From the NCBI RefSeq assembly GCF_003790525.1, contig NZ_CP033635.1: a DNA stretch of 64,000 nt; one strand, given 5' to 3'. The stretch comes from Escherichia coli (GTDB lineage Bacteria; Pseudomonadota; Gammaproteobacteria; Enterobacterales; Enterobacteriaceae). The notes under the pieces were generated by a model. It did no database searches. It saw only the letters and a list, made by a program, of their open reading frames with translations, and was not told the origin of the DNA. Shown one piece after another: positions 1,031 to 19,678 of the stretch. Each line of letters opens with the position of its first letter. The stretch's first letter is position 1. A program made the translations under genes and the position numbers.

Positions 1031-2142
1031 CACTCTTTACCGCGTGCGTCGTTGTAAATATCGGTCATTTTTTGATTCGAATGGCCCAGCAAAATTTTGG
1101 TATCAATTCCCTGTTCTCTGAACAATCGTTCTGATAAAGATCTTTGCTCATGGAAAGAGGGTGGCGTGCCATTAGCACGCCAGTTGTAATCCACAGAATC
1201 CCGGGCTTTTTTAAATGCGACTGTTAATGTTGCTGGTTTAACCATCCCGCCGCGCTTACCCATCCCCTTAGCGTGATGATGGTGCAATAACCACGGACTA
1301 AGGATGTAATCACGACAGGATGACACCACGTCACCCAGGGTAAGATTTAATTTGTCGCAACGCAGAGCCAGAGGAATGGCTATCCGGGCTCCTGTTTTTT
1401 GCTGTTCGACATGAAGGTAACCATCCCGGATATCCGAAAACTGCATTTTGCAAATATCCGAAAGACGCTGGCCCGTCATCAGTGCCAGCAGCATGCCGCG
1501 CTGTAAAAAGTAACCATCCTTTTCCGCTGCGTTATAAATCATCATCCACTCATCAAAAGTCAGTCGCTGTCTTGATATCCGCACTTGCGGTTTTTTTGCC
1601 GATTCAGCCGGGTTAAAGCCTGGCGGAACATCACCAGTTTGTTGAGCCTCCCGGAAAACATCGATCAATACCTTCCTGAAAATTTGTCCCATTCTGTTAT
1701 GTCCCTTTGCCTTGTATTCTTCCAGCACCGATACCACATCTTTTACGGTTATGGCATCTAGCGGCCTGGCTCCAAAACGTTCATCAAACACCCTGAGAGG
1801 AGCCGCTTTTTGCTTCAGCGTGCTGAGTTTGATCTCTCCGTTCTCATATCTTTCCTGTTGAATTTTTCTGTAATTATTCAGAAAAATGGAAACGGTTGAT
1901 GCGCCGCCGGTATCACTAATAATTTTCTCCTGCAGACTGAGCATTTGCTCCATTTGTTGTCTGGCAAGACGGCTGTTCGCTTCTGCTGAAATGGTTTCCG
2001 CCAGTTTCTGGTCAATACTGCCGAGTCCATGATTTTTACCTGTGATGGGATTCCTGTAACGCCAGTAAACTTTGTTATTTCTTTTGTCAAAATACGGAGA
2101 TAAACCCGGAACATCGGTTTTATATTTTCTCGGGCGCGCCAT
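1012..2142 (-). CDS. int: Tyrosine-recombinase integrase
   Basis: 376-aa ORF adjacent to attL. Catalytic-type motifs are GQRLSDI, HEQRSLSERL and LLGHSNQKMTDIYND. It overlaps xis by 23 nt. Confidence 0.95.
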   Translation of the reverse strand: MARPRKYKTDVPGLSPYFDKRNNKVYWRYRNPITGKNHGLGSIDQKLAETISAEANSRLARQQMEQMLSLQEKIISDTGGASTVSIFLNNYRKIQQERYENGEIKLSTLKQKAAPLRVFDERFGARPLDAITVKDVVSVLEEYKAKGHNRMGQIFRKVLIDVFREAQQTGDVPPGFNPAESAKKPQVRISRQRLTFDEWMMIYNAAEKDGYFLQRGMLLALMTGQRLSDICKMQFSDIRDGYLHVEQQKTGARIAIPLALRCDKLNLTLGDVVSSCRDYILSPWLLHHHHAKGMGKRGGMVKPATLTVAFKKARDSVDYNWRANGTPPSFHEQRSLSERLFREQGIDTKILLGHSNQKMTDIYNDARGKEWKKLVI

Positions 2143-2368
2143 CTTCCAGTATCCTCTTCAAAGCAGGGTGATCTGTGGCGATCACCTCCGGCTTGTTTAC
2201 CATTCCGACAAAGCGAGCGCGTGGATCCACTCGCCAGTGCCTTCCTACTTTTTTGGGGAGAGGAAATATCATTCCGGCTTTAGCGTATTTACTTAACGTA
2301 CCCGGAGTAGGGACTGGTTCACTGAATTCCTCTTTTGCCCACTCAGTGAGCAGAATAAGTCTTGCCAT
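2120..2368 (-). CDS. xis: Excisionase (lambda Xis-like)
   Basis: 82-aa ORF upstream of and overlapping int. The pattern L..EW....T......AG.IFP.PKKVGR.W.V resembles lambda Xis. Confidence 0.8.
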   Translation of the reverse strand: MARLILLTEWAKEEFSEPVPTPGTLSKYAKAGMIFPLPKKVGRHWRVDPRARFVGMVNKPEVIATDHPALKRILEDGAPEKI

Positions 2369-2432
2369 GAGCGTCGTTCGCTAATCATGGTCGCCGCCAC
2401 TATAGCCGGTGGGCGACGACCGGGGTTGAACA

Positions 2433-4886
2433 TTAAAAATCAGCCTGATTCGGGATCAGTTTTTGTATAGTGGCTGTTACGTATTTTGCCTGGTGAAGAG
2501 CGTCATCCAGAGCATTATGGCGCACGCCTTCGAATGGAATTACGCTTCTGGCATTGAAGTCTGTGATTTTCCCCATCTCAACGATTGTGCGTACATCACG
2601 ATCGTTGCTGTAATGCCACGGACAGGGGATGTCCAGACGTTCGTATGAGGTGCGCAAAATTGCGTTATCGAACGTTGCGCCATTACCCCACACCTGAACG
2701 AATTTTTCATCAGAGTGTTCATTGACGAATTCCCGAAAACGCAAAAGGGCATCTTTCATTTTTACCTGGTCAGTTAAAATGGCAGCTCTGGCTTCGCTGG
2801 ACTGCTTCAGCCACCATTCGATGGTGCCACCATCAGGAACAGCCCCTGTATTCATTGCGTCAGTCAGGCTGATAACGATATAAAATACCGGCCCGATTTC
2901 CCCTGTTTCCGGGTCGAAGAAAACCGCACCAATAACTACTATGGGTGCATTGGTGTTGGCTCCCATTGTTTCAAGGTCGACTGACAGGTGATTCCATACT
3001 CTGCTGGTGGATGTGATTTCACGATGACCGTTCATCTTAATTAAGGAATTTTCTGTTTCGCCAGTTTTATTATCGCTGGCGTGGCCCTGAGCGCCGCCAG
3101 TGTTCTCCTTGTGCGGATGCTCAGTGCCTTCCGTTTCCTCCGGATTTTTTTCCTGAGATTCAGCCTGATTTTCTCCATTGAATGTTTCCTGGTATGTTGC
3201 GTCACCCATTACTGAGCCACAATCAGGGCAGTTGCCGCCGCTGGTCTGACCGCAGGCGGTGCAGACTTTTTCCGGTTCCTGTTGCGCTACTGGCTCAGGT
3301 TGTTTCGTTTCTGGCTCGTTTTGTAACGCATTTTGGCTGTTTTGTTCCGCTTTCTGGTCGTTCTGTTCCGTTTCTTGCTGGTTCTGGTTCACTGAATCGC
3401 GAGTCTGGACTCCCTTAACCCATTTCAGATCATTCGGGTCGCTAATCCCTTCAACGAACTCACCACGCGAGGCCGCCAGTAATTTGTCTGCATCGACAGG
3501 ATTTTTGGGCGGAATGTTTTTCCTAGCTTCATGGAGTTCTGCCCGCAGTTTCTGATATTTCGCATCAACAGAATTCACCTGCGGCTGAGCATCCAGCGGC
3601 TGCGTGTCCGGATGATGTTCAGTTGTATCCGGTTCCACTGTTTCAGTCGTTGGCTGTTCATCTGCCATTGCGCCAGACGGTTGCGGTTTTTCTTCATCAT
3701 CCTGTTTTCCTTCTTCTGTTACACGCTGCGGCATTGGGGCAGAGGAACGACCGCAGGCAATATCCACGATTTCCGGATCAGGGTTGGCATGATCGGTTTC
3801 GGTCAGCACTTTATTCAGGTATTCGGTGACGCGCTGGGGCATAGCCTCTATACCAACCGGTGCTTCTTTCACGGAGGCAACCACGATGGCGCGGGAATAA
3901 TCCATCCCGCCTGGCATGTTCAGAAAAGCCTTAAGGAAGACGGAGAAACAGGGATCATTTTCTGCGATAATTTCGTTAACACGTCTGGTATGTGAAGGAT
4001 GCATGTTGTAAATATCCACATCCATCGAACGAGCCAGTTTTCCTGTAGCAACATCGAATGCCATTGACGCATTATCATGCACAAAACCTTCGCCGCGATC
4101 GGTAAGGATACCGCCGCCAGCGTTAGCGCCGGATGGTGTGCGACTGATGCGAGAAACACGATTTCCTTTCATCCACTCTTTTGTAAGCAGACCACGATCA
4201 GTGTAGTCAGCGTCCAGGTATGCTTCGATGAAGGAGGTCATCAGTCCCAGGTCTGAATTTACGGGGGCGGGAAAAACTTTGTCAGTGTCCCGCACCAGTT
4301 TGTACAAATCCCGAATCTCCAGCGGTTCGAGTTGCGCTGCTTTATTTGAGATGGCCAGCGCGGTAACGGCGGGAAGTTTTTCTTCCTGTGCGTTATGTAA
4401 TGAGCGCAGTTCATCCCGCGAAACGTGCGTTACTGGTTTTTCGCCGCCGTGTTGCGCCAGCCAGCGAACAGGCAGAATCTGACCTGAAACCGGCAGAAGC
4501 ATATTCTCCTCAATCTCAGTCATGTCTTCGCCATTAACATTGGTGTTGTCAGTGCTGGCTGGTTTGTCCTGCGCGGATGGCGGGGGCGCGATAAATATCA
4601 TTGTGATGCCATCTTCGCCGCCTTTTTCATACCGGTTACAGAATTCGGTATCAAACACGCCTTCCGGTGGAAGGTCATCAACAACGGGCAAATGGACGCG
4701 AACAGGTTTTTTAAAGTCGTCTTCATCATAATCGTTATCATCCATTGCGGTAATACAGCGGGAGATGGCAACAGATAATTTTTTTGCTGTAGTCCAGTAA
4801 AAACCACCTTTAATCCCAAGGCGTTTTCTGACTTTGTCATTTTTAGCTTCGCAATATAGCGCAAAAGTTTCTTTATCAGTGCTCAT
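2433..4886 (-). CDS. RecE N-terminal-region homolog fused to a DEDDh (DnaQ-like) 3'-5' exonuclease domain
   Basis: 817-aa ORF. The C-terminal ~190 aa carry the motifs [15 protein letters not shown] and [13 protein letters not shown]. The N-terminal ~600 aa match remembered Rac RecE non-catalytic sequence ([49 protein letters not shown]). Confidence 0.85.
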
Positions 4887-5985: not shown

Positions 5986-6011
5986 ATAAAAAAACCGCTT
6001 CGGCGCGGTTA
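5986..6011 (-). terminator. Rho-independent terminator in the early-left transcript
   Basis: On the minus strand, AACCGC-GCCGAA-GCGGTT is followed by T7 (plus strand: A7 then AACCGCTTCGGCGCGGTT). Confidence 0.5.
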
Positions 6012-6293
6012 TGCGCTCGAGTAACTTTCGGGTTTCCACGCCCGGCACCCGTTTTATGAGGTGCAGGTGCACTATAATTCCACCCGTACTGGTTTTCAAT
6101 AGCTACATTCAACATTTTCTCTTACCTTTCATCACCGAAGTGAACTTTGTTGATGCGGTGCCAGGTGCCTCCAGGTGACGTTAACCAGTTAACAATTAAC
6201 GCCGGATACAGAGAATCCACCCATAACACTGTTTTTGGTTTTAACTGTTCCGCGTGCGCTGAGCCGCATTCACCACATCACAAAATTCACTTT

Positions 6294-6349
6294 AAAAAGG
6301 GCGGCAGAGCAGTCACGGAGTAAAACTGATACCGCCACGTCACCAGAAA
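6294..6349 (-). ncRNA. dicF: DicF-like small RNA
   Basis: The reverse complement reads TTTCTGGTGACGTGGCGGTATCAGTTTTACTCCGTGACTGCTCTGCCGCCCTTTTT. This is nearly identical to remembered Qin DicF (2-nt shorter after GACGT), including its terminator stem and U tail. Confidence 0.8.
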
Positions 6350-6540
6350 ATTGATAACAGAGGGCGTTGCAGCGGGGTTGTCACTCAGGCGCATGGTCAA
6401 CCTGACAACCCGGTGTCCTCAAGGGGAAGGGAACCCCGCCATGCTTACCGCCGCGCGCTTTCGTGTTGTGTGCCTGCTTTTAACCACGTCAGGCGAGGTG
6501 GTATCCTCTGAGGGGTCTGTTACCCGAGAGGAAATTGGTT

Positions 6541-6741
6541 ATGAATACAATCAAGTTTTCTTGCCCAGAATGTGGTGGCGAAGTCTTCGACACATCCTTT
6601 AAGCCGCAGGGCTCTGACAGTTTCGCGGGAGCCATCTGCAAAAATTGTGGTCACCTTGTAACTGAAGATGAGTCCTCGCAATTCGATGAGGAAATCGTTG
6701 ACAATATCTTCGGTGTAATCACCGGAGCCTTTCTGAAGTAA
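6541..6741 (+). CDS. Small zinc-ribbon protein (66 aa)
   Basis: MNTIKFSCPECGGEVF...CKNCGHLV gives two CxxC pairs. GAGG lies upstream of the ATG. The ORF is antiparallel to the pL operon and overlaps a less convincing minus-strand ORF. Confidence 0.45.
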   Translation: MNTIKFSCPECGGEVFDTSFKPQGSDSFAGAICKNCGHLVTEDESSQFDEEIVDNIFGVITGAFLK

Positions 6742-13033: not shown

Positions 13034-13333
13034 TTATAAGAAATCGGTTTCATAACTTTGTCCGCCATGATAAACACCTGCGATAAAGACTTTATTGTCA
13101 TCAACGGCAAAAGCAATAATCGTTCTGTGGCGGAAATGAGTTACCCGCATCCCCTGGCGAATATCATCGCGTTTATTGCCCCGATGCGGAAATGCAGAAA
13201 ACCCATCAAGATAATCAAGAAGCGCATTGGCATAATTGTCAGCAATGACGCCTCCTGCTTTCTCCGTTATATATCTGTGCAGGTTTATTATCTGCTGTTC
13301 GGCCTCGGGGGTAATGATGACTTCAAATGTCAT
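13034..13333 (-). CDS. parE: ParE/RelE-family toxin
   Basis: 99 aa, MTFEVIITPEAEQQIINLHRYI...FPHRGNKRDDIRQGMRVTHFRHRTIIAF, which is a typical ParE pattern. It lies 5 nt downstream of the antitoxin gene. Confidence 0.9.
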   Translation of the reverse strand: MTFEVIITPEAEQQIINLHRYITEKAGGVIADNYANALLDYLDGFSAFPHRGNKRDDIRQGMRVTHFRHRTIIAFAVDDNKVFIAGVYHGGQSYETDFL

Positions 13334-13338
13334 GCAGA

Positions 13339-13596
13339 CTACTTCCCGGATCTAATCGCGGCGCGAACCTGTGAAATGGAGCGTCCGTTGTTTGGGTTTT
13401 CGCGGATAGAATCAAGAGAGGGGGCGACTGAATGCGTTAACCACGCTTCGATTGCTTTATCGCGCTCATTCAGTGCGCGAAGCCCTTCACGAATGACCTC
13501 GCTTTCTGAAGCATAGGCACCGGAAGCCACACGGGAGCGCACCATGTCAGCCATCTCGTTAGTTAATGTAATACTGAATTGTTGGGTTGTACGCAT
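13339..13596 (-). CDS. parD: ParD/CopG-type (RHH) antitoxin
   Basis: 85 aa from the internal Met (MRTTQQFSITLTNEMADMVRSRVASGAYASESEVIREGLRAL). This is a ribbon-helix-helix N-terminus. Confidence 0.85.
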   Translation of the reverse strand: MRTTQQFSITLTNEMADMVRSRVASGAYASESEVIREGLRALNERDKAIEAWLTHSVAPSLDSIRENPNNGRSISQVRAAIRSGK

Positions 13597-13731
13597 GGTA
13601 AACCTCACGGAGTAGGATAGAACACCATTCGATGATAGCACGCTGCCTGTTGACGACAACAGAAATCAGAGACAATATTGCCTCCAGCCAGCCTGAACAA
13701 CTGGCACCTGCTGCGCCAGCAGAGACAACGG

Positions 13732-14010
13732 ATGGCGCACGATACCAGATTACACAATTCTGATAATCTCGCCGTCTTTGCCAGCAGGCACGGGCGGCAT
13801 TCACACGCATTCAAATCTGACTGGTTCCGGCATGATCCATGTACTGAAGAACAGGCAGAGTGGCTAATTCAGAACTACCGCAGACGTGGTTACGAGTTTC
13901 AGAAAGACCTAAGTCTTGACCGCCTGTACTGGATCATCTCCGTCAGGCTCCCTTATTCCGAACGCCCACCGCGTCCATCCCGCACGTACCAGCAACGGAT
14001 CTGGAGGTAA
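13732..14010 (+). CDS. Hypothetical protein (92 aa)
   Basis: ORF from MAHDTRLH. Its 3' end contains the GGAGG that serves the next gene. No motif recognised. Confidence 0.45.
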   Translation: MAHDTRLHNSDNLAVFASRHGRHSHAFKSDWFRHDPCTEEQAEWLIQNYRRRGYEFQKDLSLDRLYWIISVRLPYSERPPRPSRTYQQRIWR

Positions 14011-14011
14011 C

Positions 14012-15064
14012 GTGAGGGTATTAGTGACACCTGAAATTGCTCACCGTCTGGGGATTGTACTTTTCAGACCCGGTCCTGATGCGATGCCTTTGTTTATGCA
14101 GGGGCGTGTGCTGGTGGAGCCTGAACCGAAAAGCATGCGCGGTCTGCCGTCCGGAGTCGTTCCTGCCGTTCGCCAGCCGTTGGCGGAAGATAAATCATTA
14201 CTCCCATTTTTCAGCAATGAGCGTGTGATTCGTGCTGCCGGCGGCGCTGGTGCACTGTCTGACTGGCTGTTGCGTCATGTCAAATCCTGCCAGTGGCCTC
14301 ATGGTGACTATCATCACAGTGAAACCGTCATACATCGTTACGGTACCGGAGCGATGGTGTTGTGCTGGCACTGCGACAACCAGCTGCGTGACCAGACATC
14401 CGAATCACTTGAGCAACTTGCTCAACAAAACCAGGCAGAATGGATGATTGACGTCATACGCCATGCAATGAACGGCACGCAGGAGCGGGAATTATCGCTG
14501 GCTGAATTATGCTGGTGGGCGGTGTGCAATCAGGTGACGGATGCACTACCCGAGACAGTATTGAGTCGTTCGATGGGATTACCTGCGGAAAAAATACGCT
14601 CTGTATACCGCGAAAGCGACATCATACCAGGAGAAAAGACCGCCACCAGCATACTGAAACAGCGCACAAAAAATCTTGTGCTGCCGACCCACCAGCAACA
14701 GAACCGACCACAGGAAAATAAGGTGGTCACCCTTACCGTTGATCCCGATTCTCCGGCTCAGTATCTCCGGCGCCAGAAACCACAACGGGAAGAGATGCCC
14801 GTATACACGCGCTGGGTAAAAACGCAGAAATGCATGACGTGTGGCAATCAGGCAGATGATCCGCATCACATCATTGGTCATGGACTGGGAGGGATGGGAA
14901 CAAAGGCTGACGATTTATTTGTTATTCCGCTGTGTCGTAAATGCCACAACGAACTGCATGCCGGGGTAAAAGAATTTGAAGAAAAACACGGCAGCCAGCT
15001 GTTGTTGTTGATTTGTTTTTTAATGCACGCGAAAAATTCGGGCGTCCTGAAGTGGAATGCATAA
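14012..15064 (+). CDS. DUF968 (YdfU-like) protein with C-terminal HNH-like Cys/His motif
   Basis: GTG start 4 nt after GGAGG. The C-terminus is CMTCGNQADDPHHIIGHGLGGMGTKADDLFVIPLCRKCHNELH. Confidence 0.8.
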   Translation: MRVLVTPEIAHRLGIVLFRPGPDAMPLFMQGRVLVEPEPKSMRGLPSGVVPAVRQPLAEDKSLLPFFSNERVIRAAGGAGALSDWLLRHVKSCQWPHGDYHHSETVIHRYGTGAMVLCWHCDNQLRDQTSESLEQLAQQNQAEWMIDVIRHAMNGTQERELSLAELCWWAVCNQVTDALPETVLSRSMGLPAEKIRSVYRESDIIPGEKTATSILKQRTKNLVLPTHQQQNRPQENKVVTLTVDPDSPAQYLRRQKPQREEMPVYTRWVKTQKCMTCGNQADDPHHIIGHGLGGMGTKADDLFVIPLCRKCHNELHAGVKEFEEKHGSQLLLLICFLMHAKNSGVLKWNA

Positions 15065-15430
15065 ATGACTGAACACATAGAATTTGTTTTGCCTTACCCG
15101 CCAACGGTGAATACTTACTGGCGACGTCGTGGCAGCACATATTTTGTATCAAAAGTCGGTGAACGTTATCGCCGGGATGTGGCGTTAATTGTTCGCCAAC
15201 AGCGGTTGAAATTAAACCTGTCCGGAAGGCTGGCAATAAAAATTATTGCAGAGCCACCGGATAAGCGCCGCCGCGACCTGGACAATATCCTGAAGGCACC
15301 ACTGGATGCACTGACGCATGCCGGACTATTCATAGACGACGAGCAGTTTGATGAAATTAATATTGTGCGCGGTCAGCCCGTTCCTGGTGGGCGGCTGGGG
15401 ATAAAAATCACAGAACTGGAGTGCGCATGA
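15065..15430 (+). CDS. rusA: Holliday junction resolvase RusA
   Basis: 121 aa, with FVLPYPPTVNTYWRRRG ... DLDNILKAPLDALTHAGLFIDDEQ. Confidence 0.95.
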   Translation: MTEHIEFVLPYPPTVNTYWRRRGSTYFVSKVGERYRRDVALIVRQQRLKLNLSGRLAIKIIAEPPDKRRRDLDNILKAPLDALTHAGLFIDDEQFDEINIVRGQPVPGGRLGIKITELECA

Positions 15431-16095
15431 ATAACCAGTATTTACAGTTTGTGCGTGAGCAGCTCATTATCGCCACCGCTGATTTGAGTGGGGCAACAAA
15501 AGGTCAGCTTGAAGCCTGGCAGGAGAATGCCATGTTCGATACAGGGCGTTACAGGCGTAAAAAAATCCGGTACCGCGATGAAGTGACTGGAAAAATGATA
15601 ACGCGGGATAATCCACCAATCCCGGGAAAACAATCGCTGGCGAAAGGCTCATCAATTGCCCTGGTCAGCCCGGTTGAGTTTTCGACATCATCATGGCGGC
15701 GGGCGGTTCTGTCTATTGAAGAACATCAGAAAGCCTGGTTGTTGTGGTGTTACAGCGGGAGTATTTGCTGGGAGTATCAGGTCACTATAACCCACTGGGC
15801 ATGGGAAGAGTTTAAGGCCCATTGTGGCAACAGGAAAATTGCAGAGAAAACACGGGAACGCCTGAAAAAATTAATCTGGCTGGCGGCGCAGGCAGTAAAA
15901 GCAGAAATTTTTGGTAAGGAAGGTTACGAATACCAGGATCTGGCATTACTGGCGGGAGTGACAGCCAAAAACTGGTCCAAAACATTTACTGGTCACTGGA
16001 TTGCAATGAAACACATTTTTCACCGGCTGGATAGTGAGGCTTTATTGTTTGTGACGAGAACACGTTCAAAACAAAAGGCGGCATTTTCACAGTAA
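15427..16095 (+). CDS. Late-gene antiterminator Q
   Basis: 222 aa. The ATG overlaps the rusA stop (ATGA). It is the last gene before a strong promoter-plus-terminator pair, and its sequence is of the phage antitermination Q (QuuD/82-type) kind. Confidence 0.8.
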   Translation: MNNQYLQFVREQLIIATADLSGATKGQLEAWQENAMFDTGRYRRKKIRYRDEVTGKMITRDNPPIPGKQSLAKGSSIALVSPVEFSTSSWRRAVLSIEEHQKAWLLWCYSGSICWEYQVTITHWAWEEFKAHCGNRKIAEKTRERLKKLIWLAAQAVKAEIFGKEGYEYQDLALLAGVTAKNWSKTFTGHWIAMKHIFHRLDSEALLFVTRTRSKQKAAFSQ

Positions 16096-16099
16096 AGTA

Positions 16100-16128
16100 T
16101 TGCAAAAGTAGATTAAAAGGCATATATT
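16100..16128 (+). promoter_or_regulatory. Candidate late promoter PR'
   Basis: TTGCAA, then a 17-nt spacer, then TATATT, immediately downstream of Q. Confidence 0.5.
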
Positions 16129-16178
16129 TCGTGTGAATTTGATATTCTGCCGATTTTGTACGTAATGGCAAATCAAGC

Positions 16179-16206
16179 AAAACCCGCCGCCGAGTGGGTT
16201 TTTTTA
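16179..16206 (+). terminator. Candidate tR' terminator
   Basis: AAAACCCGC...GTGGGTTTT hairpin followed by a T7 run, about 50 nt downstream of the candidate PR'. Confidence 0.5.
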
Positions 16207-16345
16207 TACCTGAAAAAGACACAGAACATTAAATGTGATGGCTATTGTGCTATGAGTTTTTCCTGCTATGAAGCTTCTTGACTACATGGAGCTCCATTTG
16301 TTATGCAATATATTGTTATGTTTTTGAGTTGTTAATGGTGTTGCT

Positions 16346-17059
16346 ATGGATGACAGTACTCTGCTCAGGTACTCTTCACTTTTTGTTGCTTATATGGGAT
16401 GTCTTGGGTGGGGAAGCGCTTACTTTTATGGCTGGGGTACATCCTTTTATTATGGTTTCCCATGGTGGGTGGTTGGGGCTGGTGTCGATGATGTGGCCAG
16501 AAGCCTTTTTTATGCCGTTACAGTCATTGTTATATTCCTGATTGGGTGGGGAGTCGGTGTTGTTTTCTTCCTGGGGATCAAACAAAAAAATAATGTGCAG
16601 GATCTGAGTTTTATCAGACTTTTTCTGGCGATATTGTTGCTTTTTGTTCCGCCTGCTCTGGAGTTTTCAGTAATTCATCGACGCGTTGCGCTAGATGCAT
16701 TGGTTTTATGCGTTATTGCTGCCTTAATAATTACGGTTTTTGTCAGGTCAGGAAGAAGACTTATTTCAGTCAAATGTTTTTCGGAAATGTCTTTTATTCG
16801 TCATCACTGGATTGAGTGTATGATGGTCGGATTCATGATCTATTTCTGGGGATTTTCACTTATTGCCGGTTGGTACAAACCCCAGTTTAAGAAGGAATAT
16901 CAGATGCTCCACTATGATAGTGTCTGGTATTATGTTCTTGCACGCTATGATGACAGGCTGGTGTTGTCGAAATCGTACAGTAATGGGAGTTCTACATTCG
17001 TTATACTTAATAGCGGGCAGATTGATGACTTCGAAGTTAATGTAGTCAGAGTGCGTTAA
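16346..17059 (+). CDS. Polytopic membrane protein of unknown function (moron)
   Basis: 237-aa ORF with about five hydrophobic segments rich in aromatic residues and Gly, and a soluble C-terminal ~60 aa. It lies in an A/T-rich DNA island between tR' and the tRNA cluster. Confidence 0.65.
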   Translation: MDDSTLLRYSSLFVAYMGCLGWGSAYFYGWGTSFYYGFPWWVVGAGVDDVARSLFYAVTVIVIFLIGWGVGVVFFLGIKQKNNVQDLSFIRLFLAILLLFVPPALEFSVIHRRVALDALVLCVIAALIITVFVRSGRRLISVKCFSEMSFIRHHWIECMMVGFMIYFWGFSLIAGWYKPQFKKEYQMLHYDSVWYYVLARYDDRLVLSKSYSNGSSTFVILNSGQIDDFEVNVVRVR

Positions 17060-17181
17060 TATTGCCTGAGTAATTTTCTGTTGACCGCTCAAATTCTTTT
17101 ACCATGTGTAGGCCAATATGCAGGATTTAATCAGGGAAGGGTATTGCAGAGCAAAACTGGCATAAGTATTATTCCGCATAC

Positions 17182-17257
17182 GTCCCTTTAGCTCAGTGGT
17201 GAGAGCGAGCGACTCATAATCGCCAGGTCGCTGGTTCAAATCCAGCAAGGGCCACCA
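17182..17257 (+). tRNA. tRNA with CAT anticodon (Met or lysidine-modified Ile2 type)
   Basis: 76-nt cloverleaf with D stem GCTC/GAGC, anticodon loop CTCATAA, T arm GCTGG-TTCAAAT-CCAGC and an encoded CCA. There is one acceptor-stem mismatch (U2-C71). Confidence 0.85.
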
Positions 17258-17258
17258 A

Positions 17259-17335
17259 CCGCCACTAGCTCATCAGGAGAGAGCATCAGCCTTCTAAGCT
17301 GACTGTGCGGGGTTCGAGTCCCCGGTGGCGGTCCA
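17259..17335 (+). tRNA. tRNA-Arg (UCU)
   Basis: Perfect acceptor stem CCGCCAC/GTGGCGG, anticodon loop CTTCTAA, T arm CGGGG-TTCGAGT-CCCCG and an encoded CCA. Confidence 0.9.
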
Positions 17336-17337
17336 GC

Positions 17338-17410
17338 GCCGACTTACCTCAGTCGGCAGAACAGTTTAGTTGTAACCATCAGGCCACCACTTCAATTCCG
17401 GTAGTCGGCA
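17338..17410 (+). pseudogene. Decayed tRNA-Thr(UGU)-like sequence
   Basis: The acceptor stem GCCGACT/AGTCGGC is intact and the loop GTTGTAA is present. The D stem (CCTC/GAAC), anticodon stem (GTTTA/CCATC) and T stem (ACCAC/CCGGT) are largely unpaired, and there is no CCA. Confidence 0.5.
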
Positions 17411-17750
17411 CTAAATTTCCAGGCTCGTGCTCACGGCCTGCTTCATATCCGCGCCAGGTCCGTCGCGATTAAACCACAGGGCTTTTCAGGAGGGGCCACA
17501 GAGAGCGTCACACTGACCATTCCCTGTGGCTTGTGCTGAGATCCGGTCAGTGAAATTGTGCAAAGGGAATCTTCGGGAGCTTTGGGCAGAATGTCAGTTA
17601 TTGATGTTGACATCCTCCACACCCTGAAGGTCGGGGTTTTACGGCGCACTGGATAAAATACCTGAACAAACAGCCTCTTCGTGCGGCTTTTTTATAACGA
17701 GATTCTGACTTGCTGCCGTCCGTAATGTCGGATGGCGGAGGTGAGGGACT

Positions 17751-18023
17751 ATGAGAATGGACGAACGATACAGTAACGCTGCATACGGCAGCGCAGGACT
17801 TGTTGCGTTCTTTGCCAGCCTGTCACTGCAGGATTGGGGATTTATTATCGGCGTGGCGTTCAGTATCATTCTTGGTGTTCTTACTTATCGCCTTAACAAA
17901 CGGGAGCAGGAAAAACGAACCCGCATATTGCTCGAAATTCTGGAACGAACTAATGCCGGTAATGTTCCGGCTACGGCACATGCTGTGGCTGAGATTGCGA
18001 AAAAGGCACCAAAAGAAATATGA
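17751..18023 (+). CDS. Class II (two-TMD) holin, probable pinholin, with Met1-Arg2-Met3 dual-start motif
   Basis: 90 aa with two hydrophobic segments and a charged C-terminal tail. It is the first gene of the lysis cassette and follows GGAGGTGAGGG. Confidence 0.85.
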   Translation: MRMDERYSNAAYGSAGLVAFFASLSLQDWGFIIGVAFSIILGVLTYRLNKREQEKRTRILLEILERTNAGNVPATAHAVAEIAKKAPKEI

Positions 18024-18179: not shown

Positions 18180-18557
18180 TTACGGGCCTGTGGGATCAGG
18201 TTGTTTTTTGTCTGATTCCAGAGGGAAGGGACGCTGTTTCGGTTCTCTGAACTTTAGTGATAATGAATTGAAAATCCTCATTTTTTGCTGCCATGCATAA
18301 TGTCTGTCCCATGAACAGGGGGGGCTCAATTCTTCATTCACCCATGCGTTAATATCTTGTTTCAGGTGTTGAAGCATATGGGGTGTTAATGCACTCATAA
18401 TAATATCCAGCGTTTTATGCGAGAGTTTACCGTAAGGGTCTGCAAGGATGCTGCTCGTTGCTTCGTTATTATCCACCATAAGTGGAAGTAGCGCTGATTT
18501 AACTTTTTCTGTCATTAGTTGCAAAAATCTACTGCGCAAATTTTCTTTACTGTTCAT
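18180..18557 (-). CDS. Hypothetical protein encoded antisense between holin and endolysin (moron)
   Basis: 125-aa ORF on the opposite strand in an A/T-rich segment. It looks helical and has no recognised motif. Confidence 0.55.
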   Translation of the reverse strand: MNSKENLRSRFLQLMTEKVKSALLPLMVDNNEATSSILADPYGKLSHKTLDIIMSALTPHMLQHLKQDINAWVNEELSPPCSWDRHYAWQQKMRIFNSLSLKFREPKQRPFPLESDKKQPDPTGP

Positions 18558-18680: not shown

Positions 18681-19214
18681 ATGAACGCAAAAATCAGATA
18701 CGGCCTGTCGGCTGCCGTTCTGGCGCTGATTGGTGCTGGCGCATCTGCTCCTCAGATACTTGATCAGTTTCTGGACGAAAAAGAGGGTAACCACACAACG
18801 GCATACCGCGATGGTTCTGGCATATGGACCATCTGCCGCGGTGCCACGGTGGTGGATGGAAAACACGTTTTTCCCGGAATGAAGCTGTCGAAGGAAAAAT
18901 GCGCTCAGGTTAATGCCATTGAGCGTGATAAGGCGCTGGCATGGGTGGAGCGCAATATTAAAGTTCCACTGACCGAAGCACAGAAAGCGGGTATTGCGTC
19001 ATTCTGTCCCTATAACATTGGCCCCGGTAAGTGTTTCCCGTCGACGTTTTATAAGCGGCTTAATGCCGGTGATCGAAAAGGCGCCTGCGAGGCGATTCGC
19101 TGGTGGATAAAGGATGGTGGGCGCGATTGCCGCATACGTTCAAATAACTGCTATGGACAGGTTATTCGTCGTGACCAGGAAAGCGCATTAGCCTGTTGGG
19201 GGATAGATCAGTGA
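18681..19214 (+). CDS. SAR endolysin (GH24 lysozyme, P21 R type)
   Basis: The N-terminus is Gly/Ala-rich and weakly hydrophobic ([16 protein letters not shown]). The catalytic pattern is E-x8-D-x5-T ([16 protein letters not shown]). Confidence 0.92.
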
Positions 19215-19678
19215 GCAGAGTCGCCGCGATTATTTATGCTCTGGTTATCTGCATCATCGTCTGCCTGTCGTTGGCGGTCAATCATTACCGTGATAACGCC
19301 ATAGCCTACAAAGAACAGCGTGATAAAAAAGTCAGTGAACTGAAGCAGGCGACCGCCACCATTACTGACATGCAGCAGCGTCAGCGTGATGTTGCTGCGC
19401 TCGATGCAAAGTACTCGAGAGAATTAGCCAATGCGAAAGCTGAAAATGAAACTCTGCGCGCTGATGTTGCCGCTGGCCGTAAGCGCCTGCGGGTCAATGC
19501 CAGTTGCTCCGAAGCCGTGCGTGAAGCCACCGGACCCACCAGCGTGGATAATGCAACCAGCCCCCGACTGGCAGACACCGCTGAACGGGATTATTTCACC
19601 CTCAGAGAACGGTTGATGACGATGCAGAAGCAACTGGAAGGGGCACAGGAGTATATCCGCACTCAGTGCATTAAGTAG
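19211..19678 (+). CDS. Rz-like i-spanin
   Basis: The GTG start overlaps the endolysin stop (GTGA). It has an N-terminal TMD, then coiled-coil sequence, and contains the embedded Rz1 frame. Confidence 0.85.
19431..19616 (+). CDS. Rz1-like o-spanin lipoprotein (embedded in Rz, +1 frame)
   Basis: Lipobox LAVSAC followed by a Pro-rich mature peptide. It lies entirely within the Rz gene. Confidence 0.8.

Follow-up and report, generated by a model that had tools for sequence, protein, structure and literature searches.

In lambdoid phages, the slot between the Q antiterminator gene and the lysis genes carries and regulates Shiga toxin (stx), and its other occupants show what selection favors there. 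We analyzed a 64,000-nt stretch of the Escherichia coli contig NZ_CP033635.1 (assembly GCF_003790525.1; hereafter, the window), in which a prophage carries in this slot a gene for a 237-amino-acid membrane protein that belongs to the TfpB family (Pfam PF27470). The partly studied ortholog is Salmonella STM1630, an A/T-rich gene that H-NS binds, that is transcribed from a start of its own, and that is expressed both in medium that induces Salmonella pathogenicity island 2 (SPI-2) and inside macrophages; its signature-tagged mutants were attenuated in calves and chicks, its deletion in strain 4/74 increased intramacrophage replication, and its -10 element is destroyed in ST313 strains (PMC6785131 S1 Text). 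A deletion mutant was also hypermotile in one screen (PMC4219756), a phenotype that we set aside since the follow-up study confirmed seven mutants and STM1630 was not one of them (PMC4534456). TfpY/FimB-like proteins, another group considered below, are assembly adaptors of 235 to 245 amino acids with three transmembrane (TM) helices and a periplasmic domain (PMC11841053).

The window gene is a further member of a catalogued, functionally uncharacterized family and not a new kind of element. A first-pass annotation, made from the sequence alone, had recognized no family for the protein; this part of it did not survive the comparison with PF27470, PHROG 1521, and STM1630. The match to PHROG 1521 (function unknown) had an E value of 2.5e-89 and aligned residues 17-237 with profile positions 1-221 of 222. 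Among 5.8 billion proteins searched, 124 homologs were found. PF27470.1, named "TfpB" in the context tables, was a precomputed match on all 120 listed homologs, including one, P0001, with 99% identity to the window protein. The Pfam copy that we scanned lacked the PF27470 model, and the direct Pfam scan of the window protein was therefore empty. Matches in the NCBIfam and Pfam scans were at chance level (for example, YedE, E 0.007, and one family member to a bacterial PH domain, E 0.045), and a PADLOC scan returned no families at E values up to 1. By BLASTP, the window protein and Moraxella bovis TfpB shared 26% identity over 235 amino acids (E 6e-23), and a Moraxella protein (P0238) labeled "protein tfpB" by JGI is 97% identical to the M. 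bovis open reading frame (ORF). STM1630, which lies between steB and sseJ, was 47% identical over its full length, and a primer in a published paper encodes the same N-terminus. We know of no function ever shown for Moraxella TfpB; literature searches on PF27470 and on the Shigella homolog CP0168 found nothing useful, and a paper on LT-II prophages does not mention the tfpB-family gene.

The family is small, with 70 clusters at 50% identity among 1.84 billion representatives, and spans Enterobacterales, Pasteurellaceae, Neisseriaceae, and Moraxella. When one genome per species was scanned, relatives turned up in four Moraxella species (M. bovis, M. lacunata, M. equi, and M. oblonga), in Conchiformibius, and in many Pasteurellaceae. 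Alignments A3 and A1 were used for the locus scans, as alignment A2 was too divergent. Organism-named members all came from animal-associated genera. Two homologs on short contigs were labeled as metagenome-assembled genomes of Veillonella (59% identity to the E. coli protein) and Acinetobacter (76%), and most likely represent mis-binned enterobacterial phage DNA.

The ORF is a real gene under purifying selection. Besides the more than 120 homologs, the ratio of nonsynonymous to synonymous substitution rates (dN/dS) places it beyond chance: in pairwise comparisons of the window allele with five others (from an enterotoxigenic E. coli [ETEC] plasmid, an H19-type prophage, phage 434, Salmonella, and Yersinia), dN/dS was 0.13 to 0.21, with synonymous sites near saturation. 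The first-pass annotation had described about five TM segments followed by a small C-terminal domain, and both hydropathy analysis and structure prediction agreed. Hydropathy analysis revealed four clear hydrophobic segments and a weaker N-terminal one. The AlphaFold2 model, a check that the annotation had proposed, was confident (59 sequences; predicted local distance difference test [pLDDT] 80.4, predicted template modeling score [pTM] 0.74) and placed helices at residues 4-36, 47-82, 89-111, 116-136, and 155-181 and a C-terminal domain of five beta strands at residues 184-235. No matching fold was found among solved structures in the PDB or viral models in BFVD.

Alignments, charges, and the model indicate that five TM helices, an aromatic- and Gly-rich tip, and a C-terminal beta domain are common to the window protein and the TfpB family. 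Among the 59 sequences, mean Lys+Arg counts were 3.5 and 3.9 in loops 2-3 and 4-5 and 0.9 and 1.0 in loops 1-2 and 3-4. By the positive-inside rule, this pattern suggests a cytoplasmic N-terminus and an external C-terminus, with both conserved parts predicted to be periplasmic. One is the tip between TM1 and TM2 (residues ~22-52, GWGSAYFYGWGxSFYYGFPWWxVGAGxDDxARS), and the other is the C-terminal domain, which begins with GWYKPQFKKEY. Only Y26, G31, G37, and G175 are invariant family-wide. Acidic, basic, His, Ser, and Cys residues all lack such conservation, and a binding or structural role therefore seems likelier than a catalytic one.

Distribution of the gene and its co-occurrence with Q types, a survey also proposed in the first-pass annotation, was analyzed for 91 loci, comprising the window, 80 IMG/VR contigs, and ten others. 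In 90 of these, Q lay within 4 kb and the gene held the Q-to-lysis position. The gene started 210 to 290 nt past Q in most loci and stood behind at least four mutually unrelated Q families. In many loci, a tRNA with a CAU anticodon followed tfpB at ~126 nt. Relatives were encoded on 188 IMG/VR viral contigs, and a nucleotide search found the window allele group alone in 311 of 5,426 complete E. coli genomes, which makes the tfpB-family gene one of the commonest alternative occupants of the slot. Among 50,697 phage records, homologs were carried only by phage 434 (one record) and 2B8 (two records); thus, no Stx phage in this collection carries one. E. coli matches of ~85% identity began at query position 88, that is, at window position 16183, in the terminator downstream of Q. 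Because these matches start exactly there, the terminator, the gene, and often the tRNA array appear to move as one module behind differing Q genes and late promoters, and sequence comparison places the mosaic joint of the Q/PR' and tfpB modules at the terminator.

Some relatives occupy the stx position itself. In a group of H19-type prophages (L045 to L050), the gene order is Q, methylase, tRNAs, tfpB, LpxR, PmrD, NanS-p, DUF1378, DUF826, and holin, and the flanks of this cassette match Stx2 phages that hold stx2AB between them. The tRNAs of L045 to L048 lie ~1.3 kb upstream of the homolog, as they do with stx, whereas in the window they follow the gene. The LpxR (lipid A deacylase) and PmrD-like genes of L045 to L050 are on the strand opposite to tfpB, and the three genes form a cargo block in the stx position. 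Phage 434 also has LpxR, upstream of its Q.

The surroundings of the window gene bear out much of the first-pass annotation, which had placed it as cargo in an A/T-rich island between Q with its late promoter and terminator and the lysis genes, and ahead of the tRNA genes. Gene calls and matches for Q, holin, endolysin, and Rz/Rz1 delimit the slot; G+C content was 0.38 to 0.43 over positions 16000-17200 compared with 0.48 to 0.56 on both flanks; and the gene ends before the first tRNA (Table 1). The sigma-70-type, PR'-like promoter, recovered by the promoter scan, begins 5 nt past the Q stop codon and is kept among loci with the same Q type. A -10-like GATATT at positions 16141-16146 is a possible sigma-dependent pause element, judging from its sequence. 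About 50 nt past the promoter, RNA folding identified a terminator hairpin (positions 16179-16202) with 9 bp, a 6-nt loop, and a CCCGC/GUGGG core in the stem, followed by a U-tract that ends at ~16205; the ORF starts another 140 nt on. The hairpin is kept in the window, APEC O1, UPEC 26-1, phage 434, and E. albertii, and a T-to-C change in relatives converts a G-U pair of the stem to G-C. A weak Rfam match to the Salmonella small RNA candidate STnc370 on the minus strand (positions 16171-16241; 31.6 bits against a gathering score of 54, E 0.077) lies antisense to this hairpin and is probably a terminator-shaped chance match.

Between the terminator and the start codon lies a second promoter candidate, 39 to 68 nt upstream of the ATG, with an 18-nt spacer and an extended -10 TG. 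In an alignment of six alleles from tR' to the start codon, 66% of positions were identical, with invariant blocks TCTTGAC and TTTGTTATG. A relaxed form of the pattern (TTGACT-18-TGtTATGCA) occurred in 86 of the 91 loci, representing 31 distinct upstream sequences and always with an 18-nt spacer, and only once in the 64-kb window. ETEC plasmids that lack Q retain homology from just upstream of this element onward. Given the conservation of the element, the gene resembles a classical moron equipped with a putative promoter of its own, and its expression is probably coupled not only to Q. The first-pass annotation had envisaged Q-dependent expression; coupling to Q alone is improbable in view of the recurrent promoter-like element, its retention on the Q-less plasmids, and the transcription start of STM1630. 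We also considered whether the STM1630 promoter is a domesticated PR'; the Salmonella upstream region had no significant similarity to that of the window or of phage 434, and this idea was rejected.

Outside of prophages, the gene was found next to several virulence determinants. On STb-carrying porcine ETEC plasmids, a 78%-identical copy and eltA are divergently oriented and 866 bp apart. On plasmids L039 to L044 and L058 (positions 1987-4714 of the latter), the tfpB-eltA pair is flanked by insertion sequence (IS) elements, and EAST1 is also carried. Human-type heat-labile enterotoxin (LT) plasmids (such as those of H10407 and E24377A) share only eltAB and ~250 bp with the porcine ones. The 57%-identical CP0168 was present on 106 Shigella invasion plasmids (pINV), ~5.5 kb from spa40; on pCP301 (L057, positions 6001-6717), it lies amid IS remnants on the margin of the type III secretion entry region.

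In M. bovis, a contig of 1,900 bp carries a 261-amino-acid ORF flanked by two oppositely oriented pilin C-terminal halves, an arrangement that we take to be the classical Piv-inverted pilin segment with tfpB inside. In two contigs of M. lacunata NCTC10359 (L029 and L030), the pilin N-terminus was on opposite sides and strands relative to tfpB, and both orientations of the segment may have been captured. Matches in M. lacunata and M. equi covered residues 10-141 only, so these copies may be truncated. No pilin gene was found within 6 kb in 22 Pasteurellaceae and Neisseriaceae loci or in enteric loci; a pilin neighbor was seen in Moraxella only, and we rejected pilin linkage as a family-wide trait. 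In Avibacterium, Neisseria, Pasteurella, and Gallibacterium, the gene is a single orphan among unrelated housekeeping genes with no conserved neighbor, which suggests that it works alone; the Avibacterium copies were at 12 similar places. A third, very divergent clade (~15% identity) was found in Klebsiella and Enterobacter. At its loci L141 to L144 (Klebsiella, including K. aerogenes), the gene always lies ~50 nt after an SRAP (YedK-like) gene and faces umuDC, and at L143, this cassette adjoins a phage integrase and excisionase.

The explanation that we favor, at roughly even confidence, is that the window gene encodes a functional inner-membrane protein of the TfpB family and is an autonomous late-operon moron that acts as a non-enzymatic lysogenic-conversion factor. 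Of this, a stand-alone, non-enzymatic inner-membrane protein with conserved surfaces toward the periplasm is the part supported with fair confidence. In the lysogen, the gene would be transcribed from its own sigma-70 promoter, which, by analogy with Salmonella, is probably held down by H-NS on the A/T-rich DNA; after induction, Q-modified RNA polymerase would read through it as well. The predicted helical-hairpin tip and five-stranded beta domain would be displayed at the periplasmic face, where the protein most likely binds an inner-membrane or periplasmic partner rather than catalyzing a reaction. Conversion would probably alter the envelope of the lysogen and its fitness within an animal host, and the role would not be one in the virion or in lysis. 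We favor an envelope and host-fitness role because of the animal-linked host range, the toxin, effector, and lipid A-modifier neighbors of family members (eltAB and STb, the Shigella entry region, sseJ/steB, and LpxR/PmrD), and the Salmonella regulation and infection data. Several points weigh against this explanation. Phage remnants that simply hitch-hike could account for the linkage to virulence genes, and the gene is kept in only 19 of ~70 LT plasmids. The proposed promoter is a candidate from sequence and its -10 lacks the usual final T, while the periplasmic placement of the C-terminal domain derives from the positive-inside rule and a predicted model. For STM1630, the phenotypes are both small and inconsistent.

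Superinfection exclusion or another anti-phage activity is a possible but unlikely alternative, in which the periplasmic tip and beta domain would block injection of an incoming genome from the inner membrane. HK97 gp15, P22 SieA, and T4 Imm are examples of exclusion proteins that block injection. The moron position of this prophage cargo, a promoter that may act in the lysogen, the inner-membrane location with conserved parts predicted to face the periplasm, and a single gene without conserved partners would all suit such a role, as would the presence of the family on other mobile DNA (plasmids and an invertible segment). Against it, neither PADLOC nor the known exclusion proteins in PHROGs, BFVD, and the PDB provided any match or similarity. 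In Pasteurellaceae and Neisseriaceae, the gene also looks like a stable chromosomal one within species, unlike a variable defense island, and the Salmonella copy is regulated like an intracellular-virulence gene.

A pilin or pseudopilin accessory analogous to TfpY/FimB, which would bind pilins anchored in the membrane, modulate assembly of the type IV pilus or of type II secretion and, as a phage copy, alter these systems in the lysogen, appears doubtful. Moraxella, Neisseriaceae, and Pasteurellaceae possess type IV pili or competence pseudopili, and the Moraxella gene is directly 3' of the expressed pilin, inside the invertible segment. TfpY-like proteins resemble TfpB in size class, N-in topology, odd number of TM helices, periplasmic C-terminal domain, and non-enzymatic adaptor role (PMC11841053). 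The TfpB protein has five TM helices, not three, however, and none of 34 family members matched any pilin-accessory model in NCBIfam, which presumably includes a TfpX/TfpZ-family model. The pilin-free Pasteurellaceae, Neisseriaceae, and enteric loci also argue against this function, as does the fact that enteric hosts mostly lack active type IV pili. A wider version, that TfpB is a second class of adaptor for pilins and pseudopilins or, more broadly, for single-helix membrane-anchored proteins, is a long shot. If it were true, phages, toxin plasmids, and pathogenicity islets would carry TfpB to re-tune the surface-fiber and secretion machineries of the lysogen, toxin release or sensitivity to incoming phages might change, and the recurrence of the gene beside stx-slot cargo, eltAB, the Shigella entry region, and sseJ would be accounted for.

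It is very unlikely that the gene is a functionless passenger, a phage relic that spreads through linkage to tR' and the tRNA module. It does often lie within IS-ridden remnants, truncated copies are common in the homolog list, and the STM1630 promoter was inactivated in Salmonella ST313 without obvious cost; these observations are outweighed by the low dN/dS over saturated synonymous divergence, full-length conservation from E. coli to Moraxella, and the conserved promoter element. A lysis-timing role as an antiholin or holin-like component of the late operon is hardly credible: a polytopic membrane protein encoded by the first late-operon gene, upstream of holin, endolysin, and spanins, might suggest it, but there was no holin or lysis match in Pfam or PHROG, a complete lysis cassette is already present downstream, most non-enteric homologs and the plasmid and Salmonella copies have no lysis genes nearby, and other cargo genes separate the homolog from holin in phage 434 and the L045-type prophages.

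The features of the locus are listed in Table 1. Over this region, the window matches a prophage of E. coli LR-31 with 100% identity, and the RefSeq annotation of that prophage starts Q at the ATG at 15427; the window Q is 76% identical to that of phage 434.

Table 1. Features of the prophage late region around the tfpB-family gene (window coordinates)
Feature	Position	Strand	Evidence or remark
DUF968/HNH gene	13916-15064		Upstream of RusA and Q
RusA	15065-15430		Upstream of Q
Q antiterminator gene, Q82/434 type	15421-16095	+	Pfam PF06323, E 1.1e-90; PHROG 304, E 9e-106
PR'-like late promoter, TTGCAA-17-TATATT	16100-16128	+	Sequence; promoter scan 9/12
tR'-like intrinsic terminator	16179-~16206	+	RNA fold
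Candidate own promoter of tfpB	16278-16307	+	-35 TTGACT, 16278-16283; TG, 16299-16300; -10 TATGCA, 16302-16307
tfpB-family gene	16346-17059	+	714-nt ORF, ATG start, 237 amino acids
tRNA, CAU anticodon	17182-17257	+	ARAGORN; Rfam, 64 bits; RefSeq tRNA-Ile (tRNA-Ile2(CAT))
tRNA-Arg (UCU)	17259-17335	+	ARAGORN, Rfam, RefSeq
Degenerate third tRNA-like sequence	17338-17410	+	Rfam tRNA, 19.8 bits against a gathering score of 29, E 0.64
Holin	17751-18023	+	First lysis-cassette gene, downstream limit of the cargo slot; PHROG 1350, E 3e-29; weak Pfam holin matches
Endolysin	18681-19214	+	Pfam Phage_lysozyme, E 1.7e-24
Rz, with Rz1 embedded	Rz, 19196-19678; Rz1, 19431-19616	+	Spanins; PHROG 13 and PHROG 3198

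The lysidine-type tRNA-Ile downstream of tfpB resembles ileZ of Stx phages. ARAGORN called no tRNA at 17338-17410, and the decayed tRNA-like sequence there, after the Ile2/Arg pair, recalls the three-tRNA array of Stx phages; related prophages have other arrays at the same place (for example, Ile-Lys-Thr-Gly or Ile-Arg-Arg). From this sequence to holin, ~340 nt (positions 17411-17750) contain no convincing ORF and had no megablast match in the phage collection; this interval corresponds to the stx position in an Stx phage. An A/T-rich minus-strand ORF (positions 18180-18557, G+C content ~0.38) lies between holin and endolysin. It aligns only to positions 58-158 of PHROG 1853 (function unknown), is annotated in RefSeq as a truncated pseudogene, and possibly represents another moron, now decayed, within the lysis cassette. 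The LR-31 RefSeq annotation also places a ParE/RelE toxin and a ParD antitoxin on the minus strand (positions 13034-13659), immediately upstream of the DUF968-RusA-Q block.

The interest of the gene lies in how frequently, and in what company, the TfpB family occupies the toxin slot. The analysis links phage 434 gp68, STM1630, CP0168, and Moraxella TfpB, a scattered set of "hypothetical proteins," as one family and provides for it a conserved motif, a candidate promoter, and a model of the topology.

Among described systems, the window gene resembles in setting phage 434 gene 68 (CPT_434_68, "putative membrane protein") and 2B8 gp58, whose products are 59 to 60% identical to the window protein and which likewise directly follow a Q82-type Q and a terminator, with the same promoter-like element. 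In phage 434, TciB, a small membrane protein, and the NanS-p esterase follow the homolog, rather than tRNA genes. STM1630 shares the A/T-richness, and its published transcription start has a counterpart in the candidate promoter of the window, but it is chromosomal, with no Q or lysis genes nearby, and its upstream region has no detectable similarity to that of the window. The TfpB proteins of M. bovis and M. lacunata, which gave PF27470 its name, belong to the same length class as the window protein and share its N-terminal motif AYxYGWGxxxYxGYPWW and C-terminal YYIL...IL; their genes lie between two pilin C-terminal halves in an invertible segment, whereas the window gene is phage cargo behind Q. 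TfpY/TfpX/TfpZ/FimB-like proteins are similar in size, N-in orientation, and periplasmic C-terminal domain, and are encoded just after the major pilin as in Moraxella, but they have three TM helices instead of five and no sequence match to TfpB, whose pilin linkage is confined to Moraxella. The stx operon shares with the window gene the variable slot between Q/PR'/tR' and the lysis genes; it encodes a toxin, an unrelated protein, and follows the tRNAs, whereas the window gene precedes them. In the L045-type prophages, the homolog, LpxR, and PmrD replace stx2AB between the methylase and tRNA flank and the nanS-p flank.

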